A program made the translations under genes and the position numbers. From Elusimicrobiota bacterium (GTDB taxonomy: Bacteria; Elusimicrobiota; Elusimicrobia; JACQJN01): a DNA stretch of 10,628 nt. Positions 64 through 10,541 of this stretch are shown in pieces; within the stretch, counting starts at the first letter, position 1; every line of letters begins with the position of its first letter. The notes below the pieces were generated by a model. That model did not search any database. It saw nothing but the letters and a program-made list of their open reading frames with translations, and was not told the DNA's origin. The stretch covers positions 1 through 10,628 of the forward strand of contig JACQJM010000147.1 in the NCBI GenBank assembly GCA_016205045.1. The letters are read 5' to 3'.

Positions 64-81
64 CTCATCCAAAATAAGTCA

Positions 82-109
82 GGGGCGAGGGGTGAGGGGT
101 GAGGGGTGA
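82..109 (+). repeat. G-quadruplex-type repeat GGGG-CGA-GGGG-TGA-GGGG-TGA-GGGG-TGA (tandem GAGGGGT heptamers) on the plus strand
   Basis: Read directly from the sequence. There are four G4 runs separated by 3-nt loops at 82-106. Confidence 0.7.
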
Positions 110-189: not shown

Positions 190-684
190 GTATAAAAGCA
201 GACCGGTTCCTTTCTTTGAAGAAAGAATCGATTTAAGGCTCTTCTCCCATCCGGACTATACCGTCGGCTCCCGATTCCAACGGGATCCACCGTTGCCGGT
301 CCGGTGTAACACCGGACAAAATTACCCTTTGGTAAGGATAAGCGGCATCGGGTCGTAGGCTCGTCCTTGCACTTTACTAGGTATCACATTAATAAGTGCA
401 TGGCATCGCTACCGGTGGGGACTTTCACCCCGCCCCGAAGAGTGACTATATTTTACTAACCTGAGAACTTCAGTTCAACTGAAGTTCTCCCTGCTACGCG
501 GCCACACCTTCTTGGTTAGCCAGCCCTCAACAGATCGAAAAGCTCGAAGGTGCGGGGTCGCGCCCCTCACTTGCCAGACATCTGCTTTTACAGAGTCAAT
601 CCTGGCTAGTGCGGGGCTAATTTTTAGACGGATTCTGAAGTGGAAAGTCTTTAATCCAGTGGTCTGTAGACATTATCATTTTAA
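190..684 (-). other. About 480 nt of structured non-coding region between the stop of the 968-aa gene (TGA at 685-687) and the minus-strand terminator. It is a candidate ncRNA or a long structured 3' UTR of unresolved identity.
   Basis: Neither strand has an ORF longer than about 20 codons. There are many perfect local helices: GTCCGGTG-taac-CACCGGAC at 299-318, GGGG-actttca-CCCC at 417-431, an 11-bp perfect hairpin at 463-489, and GGGGTCGCGCCCC at 556-568. The region is bounded by the intrinsic terminator at 161-188. Confidence 0.3.
463..489. repeat. Perfect inverted repeat / hairpin GAGAACTTCAG-ttcaa-CTGAAGTTCTC with an 11-bp stem and a 5-nt loop
   Basis: Read directly from the sequence. 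No T-tract follows on either strand, so it does not look like a terminator. Confidence 0.8.
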
Positions 685-3591
685 TCAGGGTGTTATGAGT
701 TTTATGACCTTGACGATTATCTCGGTACAGATTCCCCCGATACCAGTGAAAAAGCTGATCAGTCCGATTTGAGCTGTAAAATATTGGAGGATGTATCCCT
801 TCCCACCAAGTATAGATCGGCCACTAATTATGAAGCCTGCAATGAAAAGTAATACTGAAACCCACCAATGTGTTACAAGGGCCACTCCGACTCCGAGAGG
901 AATGCCTGTAAGAAGAGGGATGAGGAAGAAAGGAGGGATGAGGTCGAAAAGTTCTACGCTGCCGCGCTCGGGATTTTTGTAAATTCCCGAGCGGGCCATG
1001 GAGGCGTCTCGAATGTATTCCGTAAGGTCGAAAGGTAATACACCTCCGAAGGCCCAGCGTACGGTCGATTCTGTGTCCGGTCGCGGCTGAAGCGCATAGG
1101 TTTCAGTTGTAGGGGAATAGCGGTAGACGTTGCCTTGGGCGTCCACGTTTAAATATCTCCGGGTGGTTGTGTGTTTATAGGAATAAATGACCGTCCCATT
1201 GGTTTCTGTCTGGCCCATGAGCATAAACCAATGCCTGAGACCCCTGGGAACAAGTAGTTCTAAGGGGTACCATTGGGGGTCACTGCCCAGATTCTGTTCT
1301 CCAAATCTTCCCAGTTTTCTCTTCAAAGCATCGAGTTCTGGATTGGGACGAAAAGGACCCATAAGTCCTAGTGAGATGGGCAGTAGGCTTCCTGCTCCAG
1401 CGTGGTGAGGGGCCAGAAGGGAGAAAAAGGAAGTAATTGCCTTTTGGATATGGGGCCACAAGAATATTGCTAAGGCGATTATTCCGAGGATGGCTAAAAC
1501 CTCGATGAGCCAATAGACAACCGTCCCACGCTCAGCGTTCTTGTAGATTCCCAGATGGGTAAGGATTTGTCGGATCTTTTTGAAGGGCCAAGATAGAATC
1601 TCACCCACCACGCCAAGTCCTGCGATTGCCATAATAGCCAGCAGGCCGAACAAAGAAGGACTCCCCACTCCGGCTTGGGAGATAGGTCGGGAAGTAAGGA
1701 GAGCCTGGAATTGGGAGATGGGGTCTGATTCGACAGGGTACGAAAAGGCGTAAAGAATGGTCACAAGCGCTCTGAGTAGTAATGTGAAGAGTACCGTGTA
1801 GATGCTGAGCTTTATGATTCTGCCGGCTTTCTCCTGAATTCTCTTGGACCTTCCTTTAACCCTTACTGCTCCAGAGGCTACGCCCACAACTAAAAACACC
1901 GCAAACAAACTGGGCAGGTATATAGGGCTTGTTCCCAGAATACCCCCAATAGCAAGGGCCGTGAAGTTCCAAGGATTCTTTAGGAAATTAAAAGTGATCG
2001 CGAAGATGTTGGGTTTAGGGACATAGGCCTCCATGTCTATCATGACAATGGTGTCTTCCGTGGGCAGGGGAATTTCGGAGACTTCTACCAGGGTGCGCTT
2101 TGGAAAAGGGGCTTGAAAATATTCTCTATAGACTTTCTCGAGCCCCGCCTTATTCGCGGCCATATCTTTTATGGTTATGGTTACGTCGGCCACATCTTTA
2201 AGACTGCCTCCCGCCGCTTTTAAAACAGCCTTGAGATTTTCTAAAGCTTGTCGGGTTTGTGGTTCAATGCCTCCCGGCACGACTTCATCTGTTTCTGGGA
2301 TATTTCCTGTTTGTCCCGATAAAGTGACCCGAATATTTTTTTGGAGATCGACGGCCACAGCTTGGCTATAGCTTCCTGGAGGTGGAGCCTTCTTTGTTTG
2401 GATGGTTGTGTGTCTTGTGGATACTGGAGTTATTTTATTCTTGCGGCGTTTAAAATCATTGAGTAATTGAAAAAATCTAGTACTGGAAATATTTTGAAAG
2501 GTGAACCGGCCGTCCGGACTGATAATATAGGGCGATTTTTCAGCGCTCTCCACTGCAGAATTGGCAAAGCGAGATAGGGCAGCTCCCGCTTTTTCTGCCC
2601 AACGCCGGATGCTGGATTTTGTCAAATCTGGAAATTGTCGTTGTAAGGCCAAGAGTTCAGTCCTGGTACGCTCTTCTGCCGCCTCCTCGTTGGGCTCTAA
2701 TTTCCTAAATCCATATTGAATGCCTGGAAATGGAGTGACGGTGGGACTAGGAAGTGCGTGTTTGTCTGCGTATGTTGCCAAAATATTTTTTAGATGCCTG
2801 ATCTTTTTTTGGGCTTCCTCGCGTGAAATGATGGTTGGTACGATGACAGTTGTTTCTATTCTTGTAGGAGGTGGCTGAATTTCTGCGGAGAAGGGGGTAC
2901 GCCTAACGGGGCCGGAAATAGGTTCCCCGCGAAGGCCAAAATCGTCAAAGCGTGGGGCGGCATTCACGATGAGAGCTTTTTTAAGTTCCGCAACTTTTTT
3001 TTGGGCTTGCGCGCTTATTTGATGAACTCCGGGGCCGTATAGATCAAGGCTTCTGGTCTGATCTTGAAAAGCCTCCCAATCGGCCAGACTGTGATGATTT
3101 GTGATCATTCCATTCAGTTTCCCACGGACAAACTCTTCTATATGGGGAACCAGGATTTGATAGGTTTGTAAAAACTCTCTTCCTAATTCTTCTTGTTTTT
3201 CAATGGGAAGTTCATTGATGCGCTCGAGATCAGGAAGATGTTTTCGATTCAGGGCGAAGGCGAGGGGTCCGAGAGCTTCTAAGTCATTAGGATTGTTAAA
3301 CCTAAAAGTCTGAAGGTTAGCTAAGTTAGGCGCCTGTACTAGAATATGGGAGATGACGGGGTTGCTGATATCGAGCAGAAAAGTCTTTAGGCTTGCCAGG
3401 GCATTGAGAGTGGTTGCCGGGGCCGGTGCAAATAGAGGAATGCGCTGCCCAAAGGGTATTCCAGAGTTGCCCGAACTTGAGGCCGCCGCCAGGGCACGAG
3501 TGACCTCAGGCCCCAGGGTGGTGATGAGGAGGGATGTTATTAAGAGAGCAGAAATTTCCTGCTTCAATCGCAATAAACCGATTTTTTTCAT
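685..3591 (-). CDS. 968-aa exported multi-pass membrane protein with an internal RidA/YjgF (enamine/imine deaminase) domain. It is a paralog, in its N-terminal part, of the upstream 1391-aa protein. The family is unknown.
   Basis: Long ORF with a GAGGA ribosome-binding site 8 nt upstream of the ATG. The N-terminal signal peptide is MKKIGLLRLKQEISALLITSLLITTLGPEVTRALAAA, with an AxA-type cleavage site. Residues ~402-525 align along their whole length with RidA/TdcF. The conserved pieces are GSYSQAV, LSGQ and QTRQALENLKAVLKAAG, followed by a PKRT motif carrying the arginine and then LVEVSEIPL. From ~aa 528 to the C-terminus there are about 8-10 hydrophobic helices. A ~130-aa soluble loop sits between them. 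The motif GIYKN[AP]ERG[TS]V occurs twice. Confidence 0.85.
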   Translation of the reverse strand: MKKIGLLRLKQEISALLITSLLITTLGPEVTRALAAASSSGNSGIPFGQRIPLFAPAPATTLNALASLKTFLLDISNPVISHILVQAPNLANLQTFRFNNPNDLEALGPLAFALNRKHLPDLERINELPIEKQEELGREFLQTYQILVPHIEEFVRGKLNGMITNHHSLADWEAFQDQTRSLDLYGPGVHQISAQAQKKVAELKKALIVNAAPRFDDFGLRGEPISGPVRRTPFSAEIQPPPTRIETTVIVPTIISREEAQKKIRHLKNILATYADKHALPSPTVTPFPGIQYGFRKLEPNEEAAEERTRTELLALQRQFPDLTKSSIRRWAEKAGAALSRFANSAVESAEKSPYIISPDGRFTFQNISSTRFFQLLNDFKRRKNKITPVSTRHTTIQTKKAPPPGSYSQAVAVDLQKNIRVTLSGQTGNIPETDEVVPGGIEPQTRQALENLKAVLKAAGGSLKDVADVTITIKDMAANKAGLEKVYREYFQAPFPKRTLVEVSEIPLPTEDTIVMIDMEAYVPKPNIFAITFNFLKNPWNFTALAIGGILGTSPIYLPSLFAVFLVVGVASGAVRVKGRSKRIQEKAGRIIKLSIYTVLFTLLLRALVTILYAFSYPVESDPISQFQALLTSRPISQAGVGSPSLFGLLAIMAIAGLGVVGEILSWPFKKIRQILTHLGIYKNAERGTVVYWLIEVLAILGIIALAIFLWPHIQKAITSFFSLLAPHHAGAGSLLPISLGLMGPFRPNPELDALKRKLGRFGEQNLGSDPQWYPLELLVPRGLRHWFMLMGQTETNGTVIYSYKHTTTRRYLNVDAQGNVYRYSPTTETYALQPRPDTESTVRWAFGGVLPFDLTEYIRDASMARSGIYKNPERGSVELFDLIPPFFLIPLLTGIPLGVGVALVTHWWVSVLLFIAGFIISGRSILGGKGYILQYFTAQIGLISFFTGIGGICTEIIVKVIKLITP
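2017..2388 (-). other. RidA/YjgF/L-PSP family domain embedded within the 968-aa CDS
   Basis: The translated segment APPPGSYSQAVAVDLQKNIRVTLSGQTGNIPETDEVVPGGIEPQTRQALENLKAVLKAAGGSLKDVADVTITIKDMAANKAGLEKVYREYFQAPFPKRTLVEVSEIPLPTEDTIVMIDMEAYV matches E. coli RidA/TdcF motif by motif: the Tyr of GPY, SGQ, Q-R-SLDNVKAIVEAAG, and PARS-VEV with its Arg. Confidence 0.8.
3484..3526. repeat. Nucleotide-level repeat shared by the 5' coding ends of the two giant genes. The partner copy is at 7719-7761. Identity is about 79% over 43 nt, with a 16-nt exact core ggccccagggtggtga.
   Basis: Aligned by eye. On the minus strand the repeat encodes the conserved TTLGPE[VF]TRALAA signal-peptide block in both genes. 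Confidence 0.7.
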
Positions 3592-3644: not shown

Positions 3645-6600
3645 TTACTTAATGCCAGTTTTATCTTGAAGTTTTTTGACTTGTTCCTTCAAGGTTTTTA
3701 TTTCTTCTTGCGTATTAGAATCATCTATAACAAGAAAGAATGTTGCCACGGGCCCAAGTAAGAGAGACACCAAAAACCAGTTGAAACCCGAACGCCCCTT
3801 ACCTTGTGCGATACCTGCATTGATTAATGACAGAGTCCCCCAGCCTACTGTGAAGCCATTTAGGGAGGTGCCATTCTCAGCTAAAGCTAAATGAGGAAAG
3901 AGTGATATTCCTAGAGCAGATAAGAGGAGTGTGAGCAGTAGAAGTACTCCCATTTTTACTGAACCTCTTTCAGATCGGGCTTTGGCTATTTGGGTTTCCA
4001 AATCTGAATCGATCTTTGCATCGACCCAGTTAGATTCCTGGTTTCTGCGGGAGGCTACTTCTTTCTCCACAGCCTGCAGGGTACTCAACACGGGAGCGAA
4101 CCCAGTTCGGGCGCTGGACCCATTATTGAATAGATTGGAAAATAACCCAAACAAAGGAGGGAGAAGCAAGTCCATGAACATTCCGTTTCCAGCATCAACG
4201 GAACTGCCAGCATGCCCGGGCAGAGCCGCGCCTAGATTTTCGGCTTTGATGGTTTCATCGTTCTGTAGAGCGGTGATCATAGGGCGCAAAGATTGTAGTC
4301 CCGCATTAGCGGCAGAAGCCTCAGATTGTGCTGCAGAAGCTTCTGAGGCCGCTAAGGCTCTGTACATTCCGCTGTGATCCTCATAAGTGATGGAGGTATT
4401 ACCTTTAGAGTCTGTGTGGGTTACCGGAACATTGGTGTTCATGGCGGCCATGGCCAAGTAGGATGTTTCGCTGTTTCGATGAGAAATCATGCTGTCGATA
4501 TGATGGTCGATTTCACGTGCCAAATCAGCAGCGGGCTTAAGTTTCTCATTAAATAACGTGCTGAGCCGGTCTAGATGGTCGCGGTGTGTCTTGAACTCCC
4601 CACTTTGTGCATATATTTTGTCGCTGACCCGTTTGCGCATGGCGCTGTTGAACCTATCATATAGGGCTTCTTCTGTAACGATGTCTGTCTTTTCAAATCC
4701 TTCTAGTTCTGCCTGAGTTTTCTTGGATTGCTGACCCATCTTTCCTTTAAAGAGAGGAGGAATTTTCTTGACAAAGTTTGCGATGTTCTCTGCGATTGTG
4801 TTGGCGGTATTATTTTCCTGATCAATTTCGGCCGCAAAGGATTTGAGCAGTAAGGCCAGAGAGCCTTCGAAACCTGTGCTTACAGCAGGGGCTTCTTTCT
4901 GAGTCAGTTCAGATTCCCAGATTTTAGAGAGTTTCCCCCCGATGCGCGAACCACTGTCTTCAGAAACGGTATTTTCATTGAGGTCTGCTCGTGCGGCCAC
5001 TAGAAGATCAAAAGCAGCATAGGTTTCTGCTAGTTTAACAGGGTCCTTGGTGGCATTGTCCACTCGCTTTGCTTTAGATGCTTTGGCTTGATCTAGGGCT
5101 ACGGTCATTCTTTTGTGACGGGCTCTGGCTTGTTCGCCAATCCGATCCAGAGCGGAAGCATTATTAGCTTGTTGGGCCTCTTCGATGCGCACCATATCTG
5201 CCGCGCTTTTGGATTTTTTCCAGACTTGGTTTTTTCTGGAGGAGTAGTAATAAAATCCAGCCAGAGTGATTCCTCCCGCAAGTACTACCGCGGCGGTGAT
5301 CAGAGCCCAAAGAGGGAACTGGCTCAAGAAGCCGGTCTGAAAGAGACTATTAGCAGGTTCGGACCAGCCATCTAAGGCATCTGCCACGGCGGTTTTGAAA
5401 TGGAATAATGTTCCTAGGGAGGATAAGAGGAGTGTGAGCGTCAACAACCCTTTCACTTTCCCCGATTTTCCTCCGGGTTTGGTTTCTGGTTTTTGTTTAT
5501 TCTTTCTGTCCAGGTAGGAGTGGTGAGATTGATGCACAAAAGCAAGTCCTAATAGGATGGCGGCTAGGAAGGCCAGTCCGATGATGATTCCCGCGCCCTG
5601 GATTGAGAAGCTGGAAGCTGCGGCTTGAGTCAGTAATTCCGAGGCATGGGCCGGGGTGGGGTTGAGAATAACCCGAACAAGGACGGCAATCGTGAATGTG
5701 GAGAGGGCGTAATTCCTCGTATCTTTTAGAATTTCATCGGCGTCTTTTATGAAGTTTTGGGAATTCCACGAGGGCAGAACAGGTAAGATCACCAGGAGAG
5801 AGGAGACGGCGAGAGTCAATCCAGTTGCCAACAAAAAAATCCCAACGGAGGAAAGAGGAAGCATTCCAAGAAGCGCACCAACGACGAGACTGCTTACACC
5901 CAGGTGTGTTTTGTAGAAACTGCCGACCGAATTCAAAACGGACTGGACCGGCGGATGATATTTTCTGTATTCCTGAGCTGTTTTTATTCCTCTCTCCAAC
6001 AGGTCGATACCATATTTTTTAAAGGTCTTTAAGGCTTCCTGGTCTTTAACCGTGGTTAGAAATTGAATTGCCAAAGGATTATCTTCCAGGGCTACAACCA
6101 ATACCGAAGAAATTCTTTTTAATCCTGTTTTGGTTCCATTCCAATCGACAAGTTCCTCATCTACTCTTTGTCTTAGTTGTTCCAGGCTTTGGGGGTCTCC
6201 AATTTCCAAGAGAGCTTTTACAGCATCGAGTGTGTAGTATAGGATCATCTCATGCTTCTCTTGATCTATGAGATTCAGGATGGGTTGAGCGAGTTTGGGA
6301 TTTTTGAGTTTTGCCGCTTGTTTGATAGCGCGTTGTTTTTGTTTTACAGAGGATTTTTCATCGGTAAGCGTGGCAATTAATCTATCAAAAGATTTAGCAT
6401 CCCAGTTTGCGAAAATGAAAAGAGCGGTCATGCCTGCAGCGATCATGCCTGCCACGAGTGCTAGGCTTTCTAAGGAACTCGTAGCGGGAACCAAGATTCC
6501 ATTGTCTTGGGCGGCCGAGCGGGACGGAAAGATCAATTGTGTGATACCTTGAACCAAGCCCATCGTAAGAAATAAAGAGAACCAACCCCGAAATATGTTC

Positions 6601-7820
6601 CCTGGTTTGGGGCGGGGTCTAGTCTCGGATGCCGTTTTTGAGTCAGGTTCTGGAGTAGGAGGACTTGTCGCTTGGCTCGTTTTAGGATGGGCATTGCTGC
6701 GGACAAAAGTCTTTCTGGCCCAGTCGCGCACCCTTGAGGTCCAGCTAGGAGGTTTCAAGCCTGGATATCGGGTTTCCAGTTCTGCTTTTTCCGACTCTAA
6801 TTCCTGGATGCGTTGCAGAGAGCGTTTACCGCTGACCCGGGATGGGCCTATCCTATCTAAATATAAGGAAACTCGAGTGTCGCGAATCCGTGCCGCTTCA
6901 GCCATTTTCAAGTAGGAGAGACTTTCCGTGACTTCTCTGTATTTTTGAACGGCATCCAGGGGAATCGTTTGAGGGGATGACAGATTTTTTACCGGCTCTG
7001 CAGTGCGAAGATTATCTAGAGTTTGGCGACGAATACTCCTTTGTAAAGGGTCAACGATCCCACCCAACCCGGGGTTAATGCGTCCACCCTCATTGACCAT
7101 GTCCATAGACCCTGTTGAACCGTCATCTGACCCTGTGTGCCCTGGGGCGATGGCTTGGGTGGTGCGTTCCATGGAAGCGGTTGTGGCTTCGCTCCTCATT
7201 CTGGAAACTGTTATTTTCACCGATTGGGCCAAGTCAGAAATAATAGAGCCTTTAGGGGAGAGATCCTTGGGGTGGGCAAAGTACATCAAAAGACCGCTGA
7301 GTTGGGAATCTAACTGAGTCAAATCAGTTAGGGCGTGTTCCCGGGCTTTGTACTCTTGGTCACGGGCAGAGATAGCTTCTTCCATGTCAGGGGCAGCAGC
7401 TTTGGCGGCATCTTCCAGTGTTTCTAATATTTTTCCCTGTTTATGAGAGTCGAACGTGGCGATGCGATCTAATTCTTGGCGGAATTTTCTAGGAAGATGA
7501 GAAATTAAAGGAGCTATGACAATGCGTCCTTCCTGGTAGTAATTTAATCGGGCTAGAGGAGCAATGAAGGGATACCGGACTTGTAGTTCTTTGCCAGCGG
7601 GTGAGTTTAAGAATGGCACGAGGTGCTCCGCAAAACTCTGGCCCCATCCCTTGGAAGCGGGATCAAACAGAGGTCTTCCGATGGACAGGGGAGCGGCTCC
7701 CCCTGGATTGGCGGTAACCGCTGCCAGGGCCCGGGTAAATTCCGGCCCCAGGGTGGTGACTAAAAGAGCTACTGACAGAATAATGGAGAGTGATTTTTTG
7801 GTTAGTTTGGAATAGTTCAT
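3645..7820 (-). CDS. 1391-aa exported giant membrane protein. It has a signal peptide, a coiled-coil-rich soluble N-domain of about 400 aa, several clusters of transmembrane helices, a HEAT-like helical repeat region and long charged coiled-coil segments. It is a paralog of the 968-aa protein. The family is unknown.
   Basis: Uninterrupted 4.2-kb ORF. An AGGAGA ribosome-binding site lies upstream of the ATG at 7820, and the gap from the HTH gene's stop codon is 20 nt. The N-terminus MNYSKLTKKSLSIILSVALLVTTLGPEFTRALAAV, followed by PLSIGRPLFDPA, matches the 968-aa protein's LLITTLGPEVTRALAAA and IPFGQRIPLFAPA. Both proteins have a KP(G)NIF motif at the transition into the TM domain. A TM module is duplicated internally (LLLLTLLLSALGISLF versus LLTLTLLLSSLGTLFHF). 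Confidence 0.85.
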   Translation of the reverse strand: MNYSKLTKKSLSIILSVALLVTTLGPEFTRALAAVTANPGGAAPLSIGRPLFDPASKGWGQSFAEHLVPFLNSPAGKELQVRYPFIAPLARLNYYQEGRIVIAPLISHLPRKFRQELDRIATFDSHKQGKILETLEDAAKAAAPDMEEAISARDQEYKAREHALTDLTQLDSQLSGLLMYFAHPKDLSPKGSIISDLAQSVKITVSRMRSEATTASMERTTQAIAPGHTGSDDGSTGSMDMVNEGGRINPGLGGIVDPLQRSIRRQTLDNLRTAEPVKNLSSPQTIPLDAVQKYREVTESLSYLKMAEAARIRDTRVSLYLDRIGPSRVSGKRSLQRIQELESEKAELETRYPGLKPPSWTSRVRDWARKTFVRSNAHPKTSQATSPPTPEPDSKTASETRPRPKPGNIFRGWFSLFLTMGLVQGITQLIFPSRSAAQDNGILVPATSSLESLALVAGMIAAGMTALFIFANWDAKSFDRLIATLTDEKSSVKQKQRAIKQAAKLKNPKLAQPILNLIDQEKHEMILYYTLDAVKALLEIGDPQSLEQLRQRVDEELVDWNGTKTGLKRISSVLVVALEDNPLAIQFLTTVKDQEALKTFKKYGIDLLERGIKTAQEYRKYHPPVQSVLNSVGSFYKTHLGVSSLVVGALLGMLPLSSVGIFLLATGLTLAVSSLLVILPVLPSWNSQNFIKDADEILKDTRNYALSTFTIAVLVRVILNPTPAHASELLTQAAASSFSIQGAGIIIGLAFLAAILLGLAFVHQSHHSYLDRKNKQKPETKPGGKSGKVKGLLTLTLLLSSLGTLFHFKTAVADALDGWSEPANSLFQTGFLSQFPLWALITAAVVLAGGITLAGFYYYSSRKNQVWKKSKSAADMVRIEEAQQANNASALDRIGEQARARHKRMTVALDQAKASKAKRVDNATKDPVKLAETYAAFDLLVAARADLNENTVSEDSGSRIGGKLSKIWESELTQKEAPAVSTGFEGSLALLLKSFAAEIDQENNTANTIAENIANFVKKIPPLFKGKMGQQSKKTQAELEGFEKTDIVTEEALYDRFNSAMRKRVSDKIYAQSGEFKTHRDHLDRLSTLFNEKLKPAADLAREIDHHIDSMISHRNSETSYLAMAAMNTNVPVTHTDSKGNTSITYEDHSGMYRALAASEASAAQSEASAANAGLQSLRPMITALQNDETIKAENLGAALPGHAGSSVDAGNGMFMDLLLPPLFGLFSNLFNNGSSARTGFAPVLSTLQAVEKEVASRRNQESNWVDAKIDSDLETQIAKARSERGSVKMGVLLLLTLLLSALGISLFPHLALAENGTSLNGFTVGWGTLSLINAGIAQGKGRSGFNWFLVSLLLGPVATFFLVIDDSNTQEEIKTLKEQVKKLQDKTGIK
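3908..3936. repeat. Intragenic direct repeat inside the 1391-aa gene. The partner copy is at 5411-5439. Identity is 26/29, with an 18-nt exact core gataagaggagtgtgagc.
   Basis: Read from the sequence. On the minus strand both copies encode a poly-Leu TM segment (LLTLLLSALG versus LTLLLSSLG). This indicates an internal module duplication. Confidence 0.7.
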
Positions 7821-8407: not shown

Positions 8408-9178
8408 ATGGCTGACATTTTTCACTTTTTCGGAGTTTCTTCTCCCTTCGTCCTCATTGTTCTTTTCATTGTGTTCAGTGCTATTAAGATCCTCAATGAG
8501 TATGAGCGTGGTGTCGTGTTCACTCTGGGGAGATTCACGGCGGTCAAAGGACCGGGACTGGTTTTGGTGATTCCCGGCATTCAACAGATGACCCGGGTAG
8601 GATTGAGGACGTTAGTTCTGGATGTGCCTCCTCAGGACATCATTACCCGGGACAATATATCCGTCAAGGTGAATGCGGTGGTGTATTACCGAGTGATCGA
8701 TCCAGAAAAGGCCATCATCCAGGTGGAGAACTACCACTACGCCACAAGCCAGCTTTCTCAGACCACGTTGAGGTCGGTTCTGGGACAACAGGAGTTAGAT
8801 GACCTTCTGGCCAACCGGGAGAAGATCAATGCCAGCCTTCAACAAATTTTGGACCAACACGCGGAGCCTTGGGGCATCAAGGTCTCCAACGTGGAGGTGA
8901 AAAATGTGGACCTGCCTCAAGAGATGTTGCGGGCGATTGCTCGGCAGGCTGAGGCGGAGAGGGAAAGAAGAGCCAAGATCATTCATGCGGAAGGAGAATT
9001 CCAGGCTTCTCAAAAGCTGGCGGACGCTGCTCAGATCATCACCAAATCCCCAGGAGCCATTCAACTGAGGTACCTCCAGACGATGACAGAAGTGGCCGGG
9101 GACAAGAGCGCCACCATCATATTTCCCTTCCCGATTGATCTGATCCAGTTGTTCTTAAACAGGAAAAATGACAACTAG
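8408..9178 (+). CDS. SPFH / Band-7 domain membrane protein (stomatin-like, QmcA/YbbK-type slipin)
   Basis: A GGAGG ribosome-binding site lies 5 nt upstream of the ATG. The N-terminus has a TM helix, [23 protein letters not shown]. It is followed by a typical SPFH core ([16 protein letters not shown]...[50 protein letters not shown]...). A C-terminal coiled coil follows ([30 protein letters not shown]). Confidence 0.93.
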
Positions 9179-10541
9179 AAAGAGTTCCCTAGTTTTAGGT
9201 TTAAGTGCTTTGTTTCTTATCTCCACTCGCTTGTCCTGGGCTCAAGTGGGAAGAGTTAAGGCTGATATCCCCGTCATTCCCAATCCTGTTATTGTTCCAG
9301 CCATCCAGACTCTTCCACCACTCAATTTTCCTCAGCCTCCTGTGACGGCGTTAAGTATTTCCGCATCGCGACCCATGTCTACAGTTCAGTCTATCCGGCC
9401 TCTGGCTCCTACCGCGAGGGTGAGGGTTCCAGCACGACCGTCGCCTGTGATGCAGTCGGTCGGTCATGAAATGGCGGCATTCCAGGGGATTCCTCCCTCT
9501 AATTTAGGAGACCGTTCGGGGTCCCTAAATCGCTTCTACTCCGGCTCGGGTTCCACGGGGCAGCCCCCTTCGGGGCCCGTGGGAGGTTCTTTTAAAGATT
9601 CTATTGAGTCTTTCGTGGAGAAAGCTAAGAGGCGTTTTTATCCCAAGCTCTCTCCTGGCCGAGAAGCTCCTGTTTTTATCCCCGACGCTCTTTTTCAAAC
9701 CGAGGGAGTGCCTACGGATGAGGAAATTCAAAAACGTGTGGAGCTTTCCCCTCTTAGCAACGAAGAAAGATTTAAGGCCATTCGACAAATTTATCTGGAT
9801 GCAGGCGCTAAGCCCGAACAGATGATCGCACAAAAAATAGGAAATCGCGAGGCCTATAACCTGATCGTGACCAAGCCTGGCAAGACGGATCGGGTGATCG
9901 TGATCGGAGGGCATTACGACAAAGTCCGCGCGGGCAAAGGCACCATCGACAACTGGACCGGGGCGACCATGGTGGCCAATGTATTTCAGGCCCTGAAAGA
10001 TGTGGAGTTGGAACACACCATCGTTTTTATGGCGTTTGGGTTGGAGGAAGAAGGAATGGTAGGGTCGAAATATTATGTTCGCAGCCTTCCGAAAGACCAG
10101 TTAGCCAAAATCGATAGAATGCTGAACCTAGACACCATGGCGGTGGACGGCACTTTCTCTTGGCCCAATGGCTCGGATCGGCCTCTCTTAGATCTGGCCA
10201 TAAAGGTAGCCCAAGAGGAAAAATTGGCTCTTAAAGAGCAGCCTCTCTCGGGAGGAGATAGTGATCAAACCAGCTTCCGCAGAGCAGGTGTTCCCGCCAT
10301 GATGCTCTATGGCGCTTCCCCTAGTGTCATCTGGGATATTATTCATACAGACAATGACAACATTGCTGCCTTTTCCTTGCCGCATTATAAAAACGCCTAT
10401 TTATTGTCTCGAGCGTTAATGCTGGCGATGGATAGATTGCCCAACCGCCCTGCATCCCTTGTCTTGGATGGGTTTTTGGAGGCTCCACTGAATCCCTGGT
10501 GGCTCCATTTCCTTACTTCTCCCAGACCTTCTCAACCTTAA
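9168..10541 (+). CDS. Secreted M28-family zinc metallo-aminopeptidase with a signal peptide and a ~160-aa proline-rich N-terminal linker
   Basis: An AGGAAA ribosome-binding site lies 4 nt upstream of the ATG. The ATG overlaps the SPFH stop by 11 nt (ATGACAACTAG). The signal peptide is [25 protein letters not shown]. The M28 motifs are GGHYDKV (His249), GTIDNWTG (Asp261), [13 protein letters not shown] (Glu293/294), NLDTM (Asp322) and IIHTDNDN (His393). All five zinc-ligand positions of the family are therefore present. Confidence 0.9.

Follow-up and report, generated by a model that had tools for sequence, protein, structure and literature searches.

A RidA-fold module inside a predicted polytopic membrane protein of an Elusimicrobia genome

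What is a RidA domain doing in the middle of a large protein that appears to be built into the cell envelope? To our knowledge, all of the biochemistry of the Rid family concerns soluble trimers, cytosolic or organellar, that protect enzymes dependent on pyridoxal 5'-phosphate (PLP). The question is raised by an open reading frame, hereafter ORF A, which encodes 968 residues on the minus strand of a contig from one metagenome-assembled genome (MAG) of Elusimicrobia; the window that we analysed is this whole contig, of 10,628 nucleotides (nt). The product is identical to NCBI entry MBI4056890.1, described there as 'hypothetical protein HY399_05005'. A first-pass annotation had noticed the domain and proposed that it lies outside the cytoplasm. 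What is new here is the architecture, a RidA domain within a polytopic membrane protein, which was found once; the domain family itself is known.

Residues ~394–527 of ORF A are a complete, bona fide RidA-fold module. PF01042 (Ribonuc_L-PSP), the family to which the first-pass annotation had assigned the region, matches residues 400–510 with an E-value of 7.5e-22 and 78 bits (gathering score, 27.3), and the NCBIfam profile TIGR00004 matches residues 395–511 at 86.4 bits. A phmmer search of the PDB sequences with ORF A retrieved 44 chains of RidA/YjgF/UK114 proteins, the best of which was 1xrg (E-value 3e-22, ~45% identity). The fold of the Rid superfamily is a chorismate-mutase-like alpha/beta arrangement of about 125–135 residues. 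The AlphaFold2 model of residues 381–540, built with 26 homologs in the alignment, has a predicted local distance difference test (pLDDT) value of 88.3 and a predicted template-modelling score of 0.81. When compared by Foldseek with solved RidA structures, it gave template-modelling scores of 0.85–0.94 (normalised to the target) and root-mean-square deviations of 1.0–1.8 Å. The homologous stretch corresponds to a stand-alone RidA from its second through its last residue, and PF01042 matches a single stretch, i.e., ORF A holds one RidA domain only. The domain had been placed at residues ~402–525 (2017–2388), and the profiles, phmmer, AlphaFold2 and Foldseek all agree with this placement, the true extent being slightly wider. 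The motifs listed with it (GSYSQAV, SGQ, QTRQALENLKAVLKAAG, PKRT and VEVSEIP) are all there and in register with the family.

A combination of domains seen once may also be an artefact, either an assembly chimera or sequencing error that joins separate genes, or a decaying pseudogene. ORF A does come from a single contig, a single genome and a single cluster member, and no second genome with its architecture was found. Against this, the reading frame is uninterrupted for 968 codons, and the RidA segment is in frame with both flanks. The codons at the junctions (ACA for Thr392 and AGA for Arg393 on one side, Lys526 and then CCC for Pro527 on the other) are at least two substitutions away from any start or stop codon, and the two alternative frames are closed by stops around both junctions. 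The RidA segment and its flanks are alike in relative codon usage and in GC content by codon position, including the third, and the N-terminal flank is validated as coding by its likeness to the product of the neighbouring gene, ORF B. The junction codons, the closed alternative frames and the uniform codon usage make an artefactual fusion very improbable, and on these grounds we rejected an assembly or frameshift artefact.

We then asked how rare the fusion is. When 1.84 billion cluster representatives were searched by phmmer with full-length ORF A, 5,189 matches came up; the best 150 of these cover residues ~385–530 only, and none of these 150 has the same fusion (flank-only matches weaker than an E-value of 1.7e-12 lie outside them). 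A word-indexed search with the full ORF A protein found no other protein, only the self-match. Scans that combined patterns and tblastn, made with N-terminal profiles and with residues 530–968 (439 residues), identified no relative in the GTDB species genomes, the JGI metagenomes or IMG/VR, and no independent contig with ORF A or ORF B is on record. Among the 172 nearest RidA representatives, none is polytopic, and a single one has an extra hydrophobic segment, in its C-terminal tail. Outside the RidA domain, nothing significant was found in ORF A with Pfam, NCBIfam, PHROGs, PADLOC and the PDB sequences. The fusion to about 850 residues of unrelated sequence, as it had initially been described, is thus borne out: the flanks amount to ~840 residues, and no relatives of them were detected, except for the N-terminal part that is common to ORF B. 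As judged from the databases searched, the architecture of ORF A is a singleton, found nowhere else.

The module itself has close relatives. The nearest are stand-alone RidA-like proteins of 134–168 residues, of metagenomic origin, which are 52–61% identical to it over its whole length and have in common the motifs G(N/S)YSQ, GQTGN, KDMxxxKxGFE and PARSLVEVSEIPLxxE. These proteins, which we call the 'GQTGN' clade, and the module of ORF A also carry three small insertions that canonical RidA lacks. Sequence similarity indicates that the module derives from this divergent clade of free-standing proteins. The whole clade scores 74.6–106.1 bits with TIGR00004 (cut-off 106.25), compared with 147 bits for the canonical P0163; the 86 bits of ORF A are typical of the clade and therefore no sign of decay. 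In a leave-one-out count over 61 conserved positions, the module departs from the consensus of its clade at 12, which is the same count as for P0161 and P0162, two members, exported or free-standing, with similar mean identity. Since it departs no more than these do, the module fits a scenario of continued purifying selection; it seems to remain constrained, and its last strand is markedly changed. The genomic contexts of the clade are diverse: the gene of one member adjoins archaeal ribosomal protein genes, another member is annotated as Nanoarchaeota, and the gene of P0157 adjoins one for a class-V PLP aminotransferase, which is a classical context for RidA.

To compare active sites, we used as a reference the E. 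coli RidA sequence, in which residues 17, 30, 88, 105, 107 and 120 were confirmed to be the published Y, S, N, R, C and E. In the alignment, Tyr17 corresponds to Tyr408 of ORF A, Ser30-Gly31-Gln32 to Ser425-Gly426-Gln427, and Arg105 to Arg499, whose alignment column is invariant. Other positions differ: Asn88 corresponds to Glu486 (a change found across the clade), Cys107 to Leu501, Glu120 to Met517, and Glu122 to Asp519. Hence ORF A retains two residues of the Arg/Tyr/Glu trio that the first-pass annotation had singled out, the Arg and the Tyr, and lacks the Glu. In the literature, Arg105 is the carboxylate-binding residue, and its change to Ala nearly abolishes imine hydrolysis; in RidA of S. 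enterica, the changes Tyr17 to Ala and Glu120 to Ala were of little effect (Niehaus et al. 2015, PMC4433059). Because of this last result, Met517 is compatible with activity. A Met likewise replaces Glu120 in P0011, P0023 and P0155, the last of which is a stand-alone relative.

On which side of the membrane does the module lie? Export and topology were called with simple heuristics, namely the positive-inside rule, crude insertion energies and a reading of the n-, h- and c-regions. The N-terminus reads as a textbook Sec signal. Its n-region, MKKIGLLRLKQE, has four Lys or Arg within residues 1–12; its h-region, ISALLITSLLITTLG, has 15 residues and is followed by a Gly-Pro break; its c-region, PEVTRALA, precedes an Ala at the putative cleavage point and has Ala at −3 and −1 (an AxA site). 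The end of this signal, TTLGPE(V/F)TRALAA, recurs in ORF B with 13 of 14 residues the same. The loops that follow the first, second and third predicted transmembrane helices contain seven, one and five Lys or Arg, respectively, and the loops 577–594 and 666–690, both rich in these residues, are predicted to be cytoplasmic. These heuristic calls fit a topology in which residues 36–556, including the RidA module, and 712–887 are outside and nothing but short loops faces the cytoplasm.

The module would instead lie on the cytoplasmic face, and might carry out the usual RidA chemistry there as a membrane-tethered domain, if the N-terminal stretch were no functional signal and residues 541–576 formed a helical hairpin. 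The Lys/Arg-rich loops would then stay in the cytoplasm. The hydrophobic stretch 541–576 does span 36 residues, and AlphaFold splits it into a short helix (540–553, 14 residues) and a longer one (556–576, 21 residues). However, segment 541–558 is poorly hydrophobic: its crude biological-hydrophobicity sum (the insertion energy) is +6.4, which makes a topology-flipping hairpin unlikely. The helix 540–553 is too short to span the bilayer, and the textbook N-terminus with its AxA site is conserved in the paralog ORF B. A cytoplasmic module is thus quite unlikely in our view, and the module is probably extracytoplasmic. The first-pass annotation had placed it after a signal peptide, ahead of the first transmembrane helix and outside the cytoplasm; the n/h/c pattern, the AxA site and the hydrophobic segments are in line with the former, the positive-inside rule and the crude insertion energies with the latter.

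RidA is a homotrimer, and its active sites, or ligand clefts, lie between subunits. The best explanation of our results, given a heuristic topology, is that ORF A encodes a real, lineage-specific polytopic protein of the inner membrane with most of its mass in the periplasm. An entire stand-alone RidA-like gene of the divergent 'GQTGN' clade would have been taken up in frame, after the part that encodes an orphan helical ectodomain and ahead of the first transmembrane helix. Because the fold, Arg499, Tyr408 and most of the clade motifs are kept, we propose that the module still binds small alpha-carboxylates (2-imino, enamine or 2-oxo acids) via Arg499, a prediction made from residue conservation. 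Its most likely role would be that of a membrane-tethered extracytoplasmic imine/enamine hydrolase, and its substrates could, for instance, be imino acids set free by amino-acid or amine oxidases that are secreted or located in the periplasm. Since RidA active sites lie between the subunits of a trimer, trimerisation would be required and enforced in ORF A, and, as the protein has a single RidA domain, any such trimer must be intermolecular. We give about even chances to the proposal as a whole, i.e., a membrane-tethered extracytoplasmic RidA module that trimerises, clamps alpha-carboxylates by Arg499 and probably hydrolyses imines.

Several points weigh against this proposal. The residue replaced by Met517, Glu120, is near-invariant in the family. 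The last beta-strand, part of the trimer core, is unusually altered (from IVEIEAVAY to IVMIDMEAY), and the module differs from the clade by the non-conservative changes R412V, G417Q, F473T, A498K (which adjoins Arg499), E517M and A520M. Its TIGR00004 score is below the curated cut-off (86.4 versus 106.25 bits). The topology call is heuristic throughout, ORF A is known from one contig of one MAG, and no imine-producing enzyme (oxidase, dehydratase or other) is encoded near it on the contig.

Some of these points would be expected if the module were structural only, that is, a stable trimerisation or scaffold unit, or a non-catalytic ligand-binding module of the ectodomain, without imine hydrolysis. 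The Met in place of Glu120 agrees with such a role, as does the clustering of changes in the last strand and in the core aromatics (F473T and a further one, F484L), and the neighbourhood contains no imine-generating partner. With no cytoplasmic domain to serve as an output, ORF A does not resemble a classical sensor, and its transmembrane part has the look of an anchor or a bundle. The Rid fold is also used elsewhere as an oligomeric building block, in 3x-RidA fusions that mimic RidA trimers covalently (PMC4433059). Yet a pure scaffold would not need the catalysis-essential Arg105, nor Tyr17, SGQ and most of the clade motifs, all of which are kept. The divergence of the module is no greater than that of free-standing clade members, and the change from Glu to Met occurs in the stand-alone P0155 as well. 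We regard such a structural or non-catalytic role as the main rival of our proposal, if on the unlikely side.

An active-site-independent role is also conceivable. E. coli RidA reportedly becomes a holdase after N-chlorination. A chlorination-induced activity is also reported for YabJ of S. aureus, a different Rid protein (PMC6435465). The module of ORF A could similarly be an extracytoplasmic, stress-activated holdase chaperone: its location would expose it to oxidants, and Glu120 would not be needed. There is no specific evidence for this in the locus of ORF A, and a holdase would leave the conserved Arg and Tyr unexplained, which leads us to consider it highly unlikely.

The regions around the module, and ORF B, give a few more clues on the membrane-tethered protein. 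The first ~180 residues of ORF A and ORF B are alike (29% identity, E-value 4e-13). The rest of ORF B has little to offer, as the protein has only sub-threshold matches to HEAT and EMC6 in Pfam and weak matches to PHROGs. In the full-length AlphaFold model of ORF A (mean pLDDT 58), which we used for secondary structure only, the N-terminal ectodomain is mostly helical, with residues 107–209 at pLDDT 70–80, and there is a small beta-rich unit at residues 774–825. The neighbours of ORF A are ORF B, the genes of an HTH_17 protein, a slipin and an M28 peptidase, and one under riboswitch control (Table 1). The HTH_17 gene, ORF B and ORF A run in the same direction, separated by 20 and 53 nt, and therefore probably form one operon, in which ORF B would be co-transcribed with ORF A and the HTH_17 gene may come first. 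One can imagine that ORF A and its paralog belong to a previously unseen envelope machine of an uncultured Elusimicrobia lineage, in which a trimeric, membrane-embedded RidA performs or senses extracytoplasmic imine/enamine chemistry, and that exported Rid proteins are an unexplored, extracytoplasmic branch of metabolite damage control. We view this larger scenario as unlikely.

Table 1. Coordinates of ORF A, of its parts and of the other features of the window.
Feature	Coordinates	Strand	Remarks
ORF A	685..3591	−	Signal peptide, orphan helical ectodomain, RidA module, four transmembrane helices, second ectodomain, C-terminal transmembrane helices (predicted layout)
Signal sequence of ORF A, residues 1–35	3487..3591	−	Sec-type, judged by heuristics only
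N-terminal region of ORF A, residues ~36–200	2992..3486	−	Common to ORF B
RidA/YjgF (PF01042) module, complete, residues 394–527	2011..2412	−	Profile, alignment, model
Codon of Arg499	2095..2097	−	Equivalent of E. coli RidA Arg105
Codon of Tyr408	2368..2370	−	Equivalent of E. coli RidA Tyr17
Codon of Met517	2041..2043	−	At the near-invariant Glu120 position
Four predicted transmembrane helices, residues 557–711	1459..1923	−	~557–576, 595–613, 647–665, 691–711
Second predicted extracytoplasmic region, residues 712–887, orphan	931..1458	−	Beta-rich segment 774–825
Two or three predicted C-terminal transmembrane helices, residues 888–962	706..930	−	Hydrophobicity, AlphaFold
ORF B, 1391 residues, multiple transmembrane helices, no RidA domain	3645..7820	−	Ends 53 nt upstream of ORF A
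HTH_17 (excisionase/MerR-like) protein, 60 residues	7841..8023	−	20 nt upstream of ORF B
Slipin/SPFH (Band 7) gene	8408..9178	+	
M28 peptidase gene, signal-like N-terminus	9168..10541	+	11-nt overlap with the slipin gene
Flavin mononucleotide (FMN) riboswitch	235..446	−	RF00050, 84.9 bits versus gathering score 66.2

Some features of ORF A and ORF B deserve mention in their own right. The two proteins are far more alike at the end of their signal sequences than in the rest of their common region. Gene conversion could explain this, as could a constraint on a signal for targeting or processing. The sequence GIYKN(A/P)ERG(T/S)V occurs twice in ORF A, at residues 681–693 (~1513..1551) and 869–881 (~949..987), each time just ahead of a hydrophobic helix. 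A related element, ERGSV followed by a transmembrane segment and (W/F)PH, is found near the C-terminus of ORF B (residues ~1283–1312), and the whole looks like a duplicated module that precedes transmembrane helices. Also in ORF B, the C-terminal hydrophobic stretch at residues 1327–1381 (~3678..3842), GRSGFNWFLVSLLLGPVATFFLVIDD, weakly matches phrog_13090 (E-value 8.5e-5) and phrog_8436 (E-value 1.6e-4), two families of phage proteins of unknown function. Apart from the excisionase-like HTH_17 protein, we saw no hallmark of mobile elements.

One match linked the module to anti-phage defence. Positions 169–287 of the 294 of the PADLOC profile PD-T4-2_B match residues 395–518 of ORF A (E-value 1.8e-13). 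The match covers the RidA part only and has no partner: the PD-T4-2 system contains DUF262/HEPN domains (PMC10952713), and Pfam found neither DUF262 nor HEPN in ORF A, ORF B or the neighbouring genes. We thus discarded PD-T4-2 as an identity for this locus. It seems from this comparison that a Rid-fold domain is part of the known defence protein PD-T4-2_B, in its C-terminal region.

In the rest of the window, the slipin and the M28 peptidase are each the sole member of their 90%-identity cluster, which shows how thinly this lineage of Elusimicrobia is sampled. A scan for promoters and terminators gave counts that were not above the shuffled expectation. The FMN riboswitch shares its strand with ORF A, is downstream of it and is followed by two elements, identified by eye, that consist of a hairpin plus a run of T. 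Beyond it there is a 7-nt tandem repeat, AGGGGTG, in 4.1 copies (81..109; CACCCCT on the minus strand). A minus-strand gene starts at 68, past the riboswitch and the repeat, and runs off the contig; its product, MSQVLKLAQKGRGKVSPNPMVG, resembles the N-terminus of RibD. This C-rich heptad repeat is directly upstream of the start at 68, and there is no obvious Shine-Dalgarno sequence.

Is export, then, peculiar to ORF A? We read the N-termini of relatives and applied a simple filter for n- and h-regions to 173 proteins, the 172 nearest RidA representatives and ORF A. It flagged 45 of the 173, including ORF A and three false positives in which the hydrophobic stretch is inside the RidA fold. By this heuristic, signal or lipoprotein-like peptides are carried by ~41 of the 172. 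The initial view of RidA proteins as normally cytosolic is therefore accurate for the characterised ones and does not hold as a general rule. Among close clade members, P0003 has a signal peptide, a RidA domain and an EF-hand-like C-terminal region, whereas P0011 and P0161 have a signal peptide and one RidA domain. The gene of P0161 (2458..3102 in locus L001) is located between those of an outer-membrane beta-barrel protein and of a caspase-like C14 peptidase. Many proteins of ~400 residues with three RidA domains also have signal or lipobox sequences, e.g., P0005 and P0013. In the literature searched for RidA that is exported, secreted or periplasmic, no study of it turned up; the RidA involved in chitin oxidation (OngD) is cytoplasmic, and the survey of the Rid family is silent on signal peptides (PMC4433059). 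Export of RidA is thus not new at the level of sequence, and is apparently unstudied.

The general importance of ORF A is limited, because it is a singleton of one uncultured genome. It points, nevertheless, to a wider class, that of the exported Rid proteins, which seems not to have been studied. Together, the module and the export signals of about a quarter of its nearest relatives suggest that imines or enamines are handled or sensed outside the cytoplasm, with amino-acid or amine oxidases as candidate sources. The exported stand-alone relatives offer easier experimental entry points than ORF A.

How does ORF A compare with known systems? The archetypal RidA proteins (E. coli RidA/TdcF, 1xrg of C. 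thermocellum, 2dyy of P. horikoshii, and goat and human UK114) have the same fold as the module, are 36–44% identical to it, and have in common with it Arg105, Tyr17 and the SGQ motif. They are free-standing proteins of 125–140 residues, cytosolic or organellar, whereas the module of ORF A is internal to a membrane protein, is predicted to be extracytoplasmic, and differs by Glu120 to Met, Asn88 to Glu, Cys107 to Leu and the three small clade-specific insertions. The 'GQTGN' clade (P0151–P0160, P0004 and P0162) is much closer, in identity, in motifs and in its sub-threshold TIGR00004 scores. Unlike ORF A, its proteins stand alone and mostly lack a signal peptide; the copy in ORF A has no start and stop codons of its own and carries E517M, A498K and F473T. 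The tandem 3x-RidA fusions (PMC4433059) make clear that a Rid domain can be fused covalently and its trimer built into one chain; ORF A has a single RidA domain. Finally, the exported proteins P0161, P0011, P0003, P0005 and P0013 resemble ORF A in having a signal sequence ahead of RidA and a predicted extracytoplasmic location, and P0011 also has the M-I-D version of the last strand. They differ from it in being soluble or lipid-anchored, without the transmembrane bundle or the orphan ectodomain that set ORF A apart.

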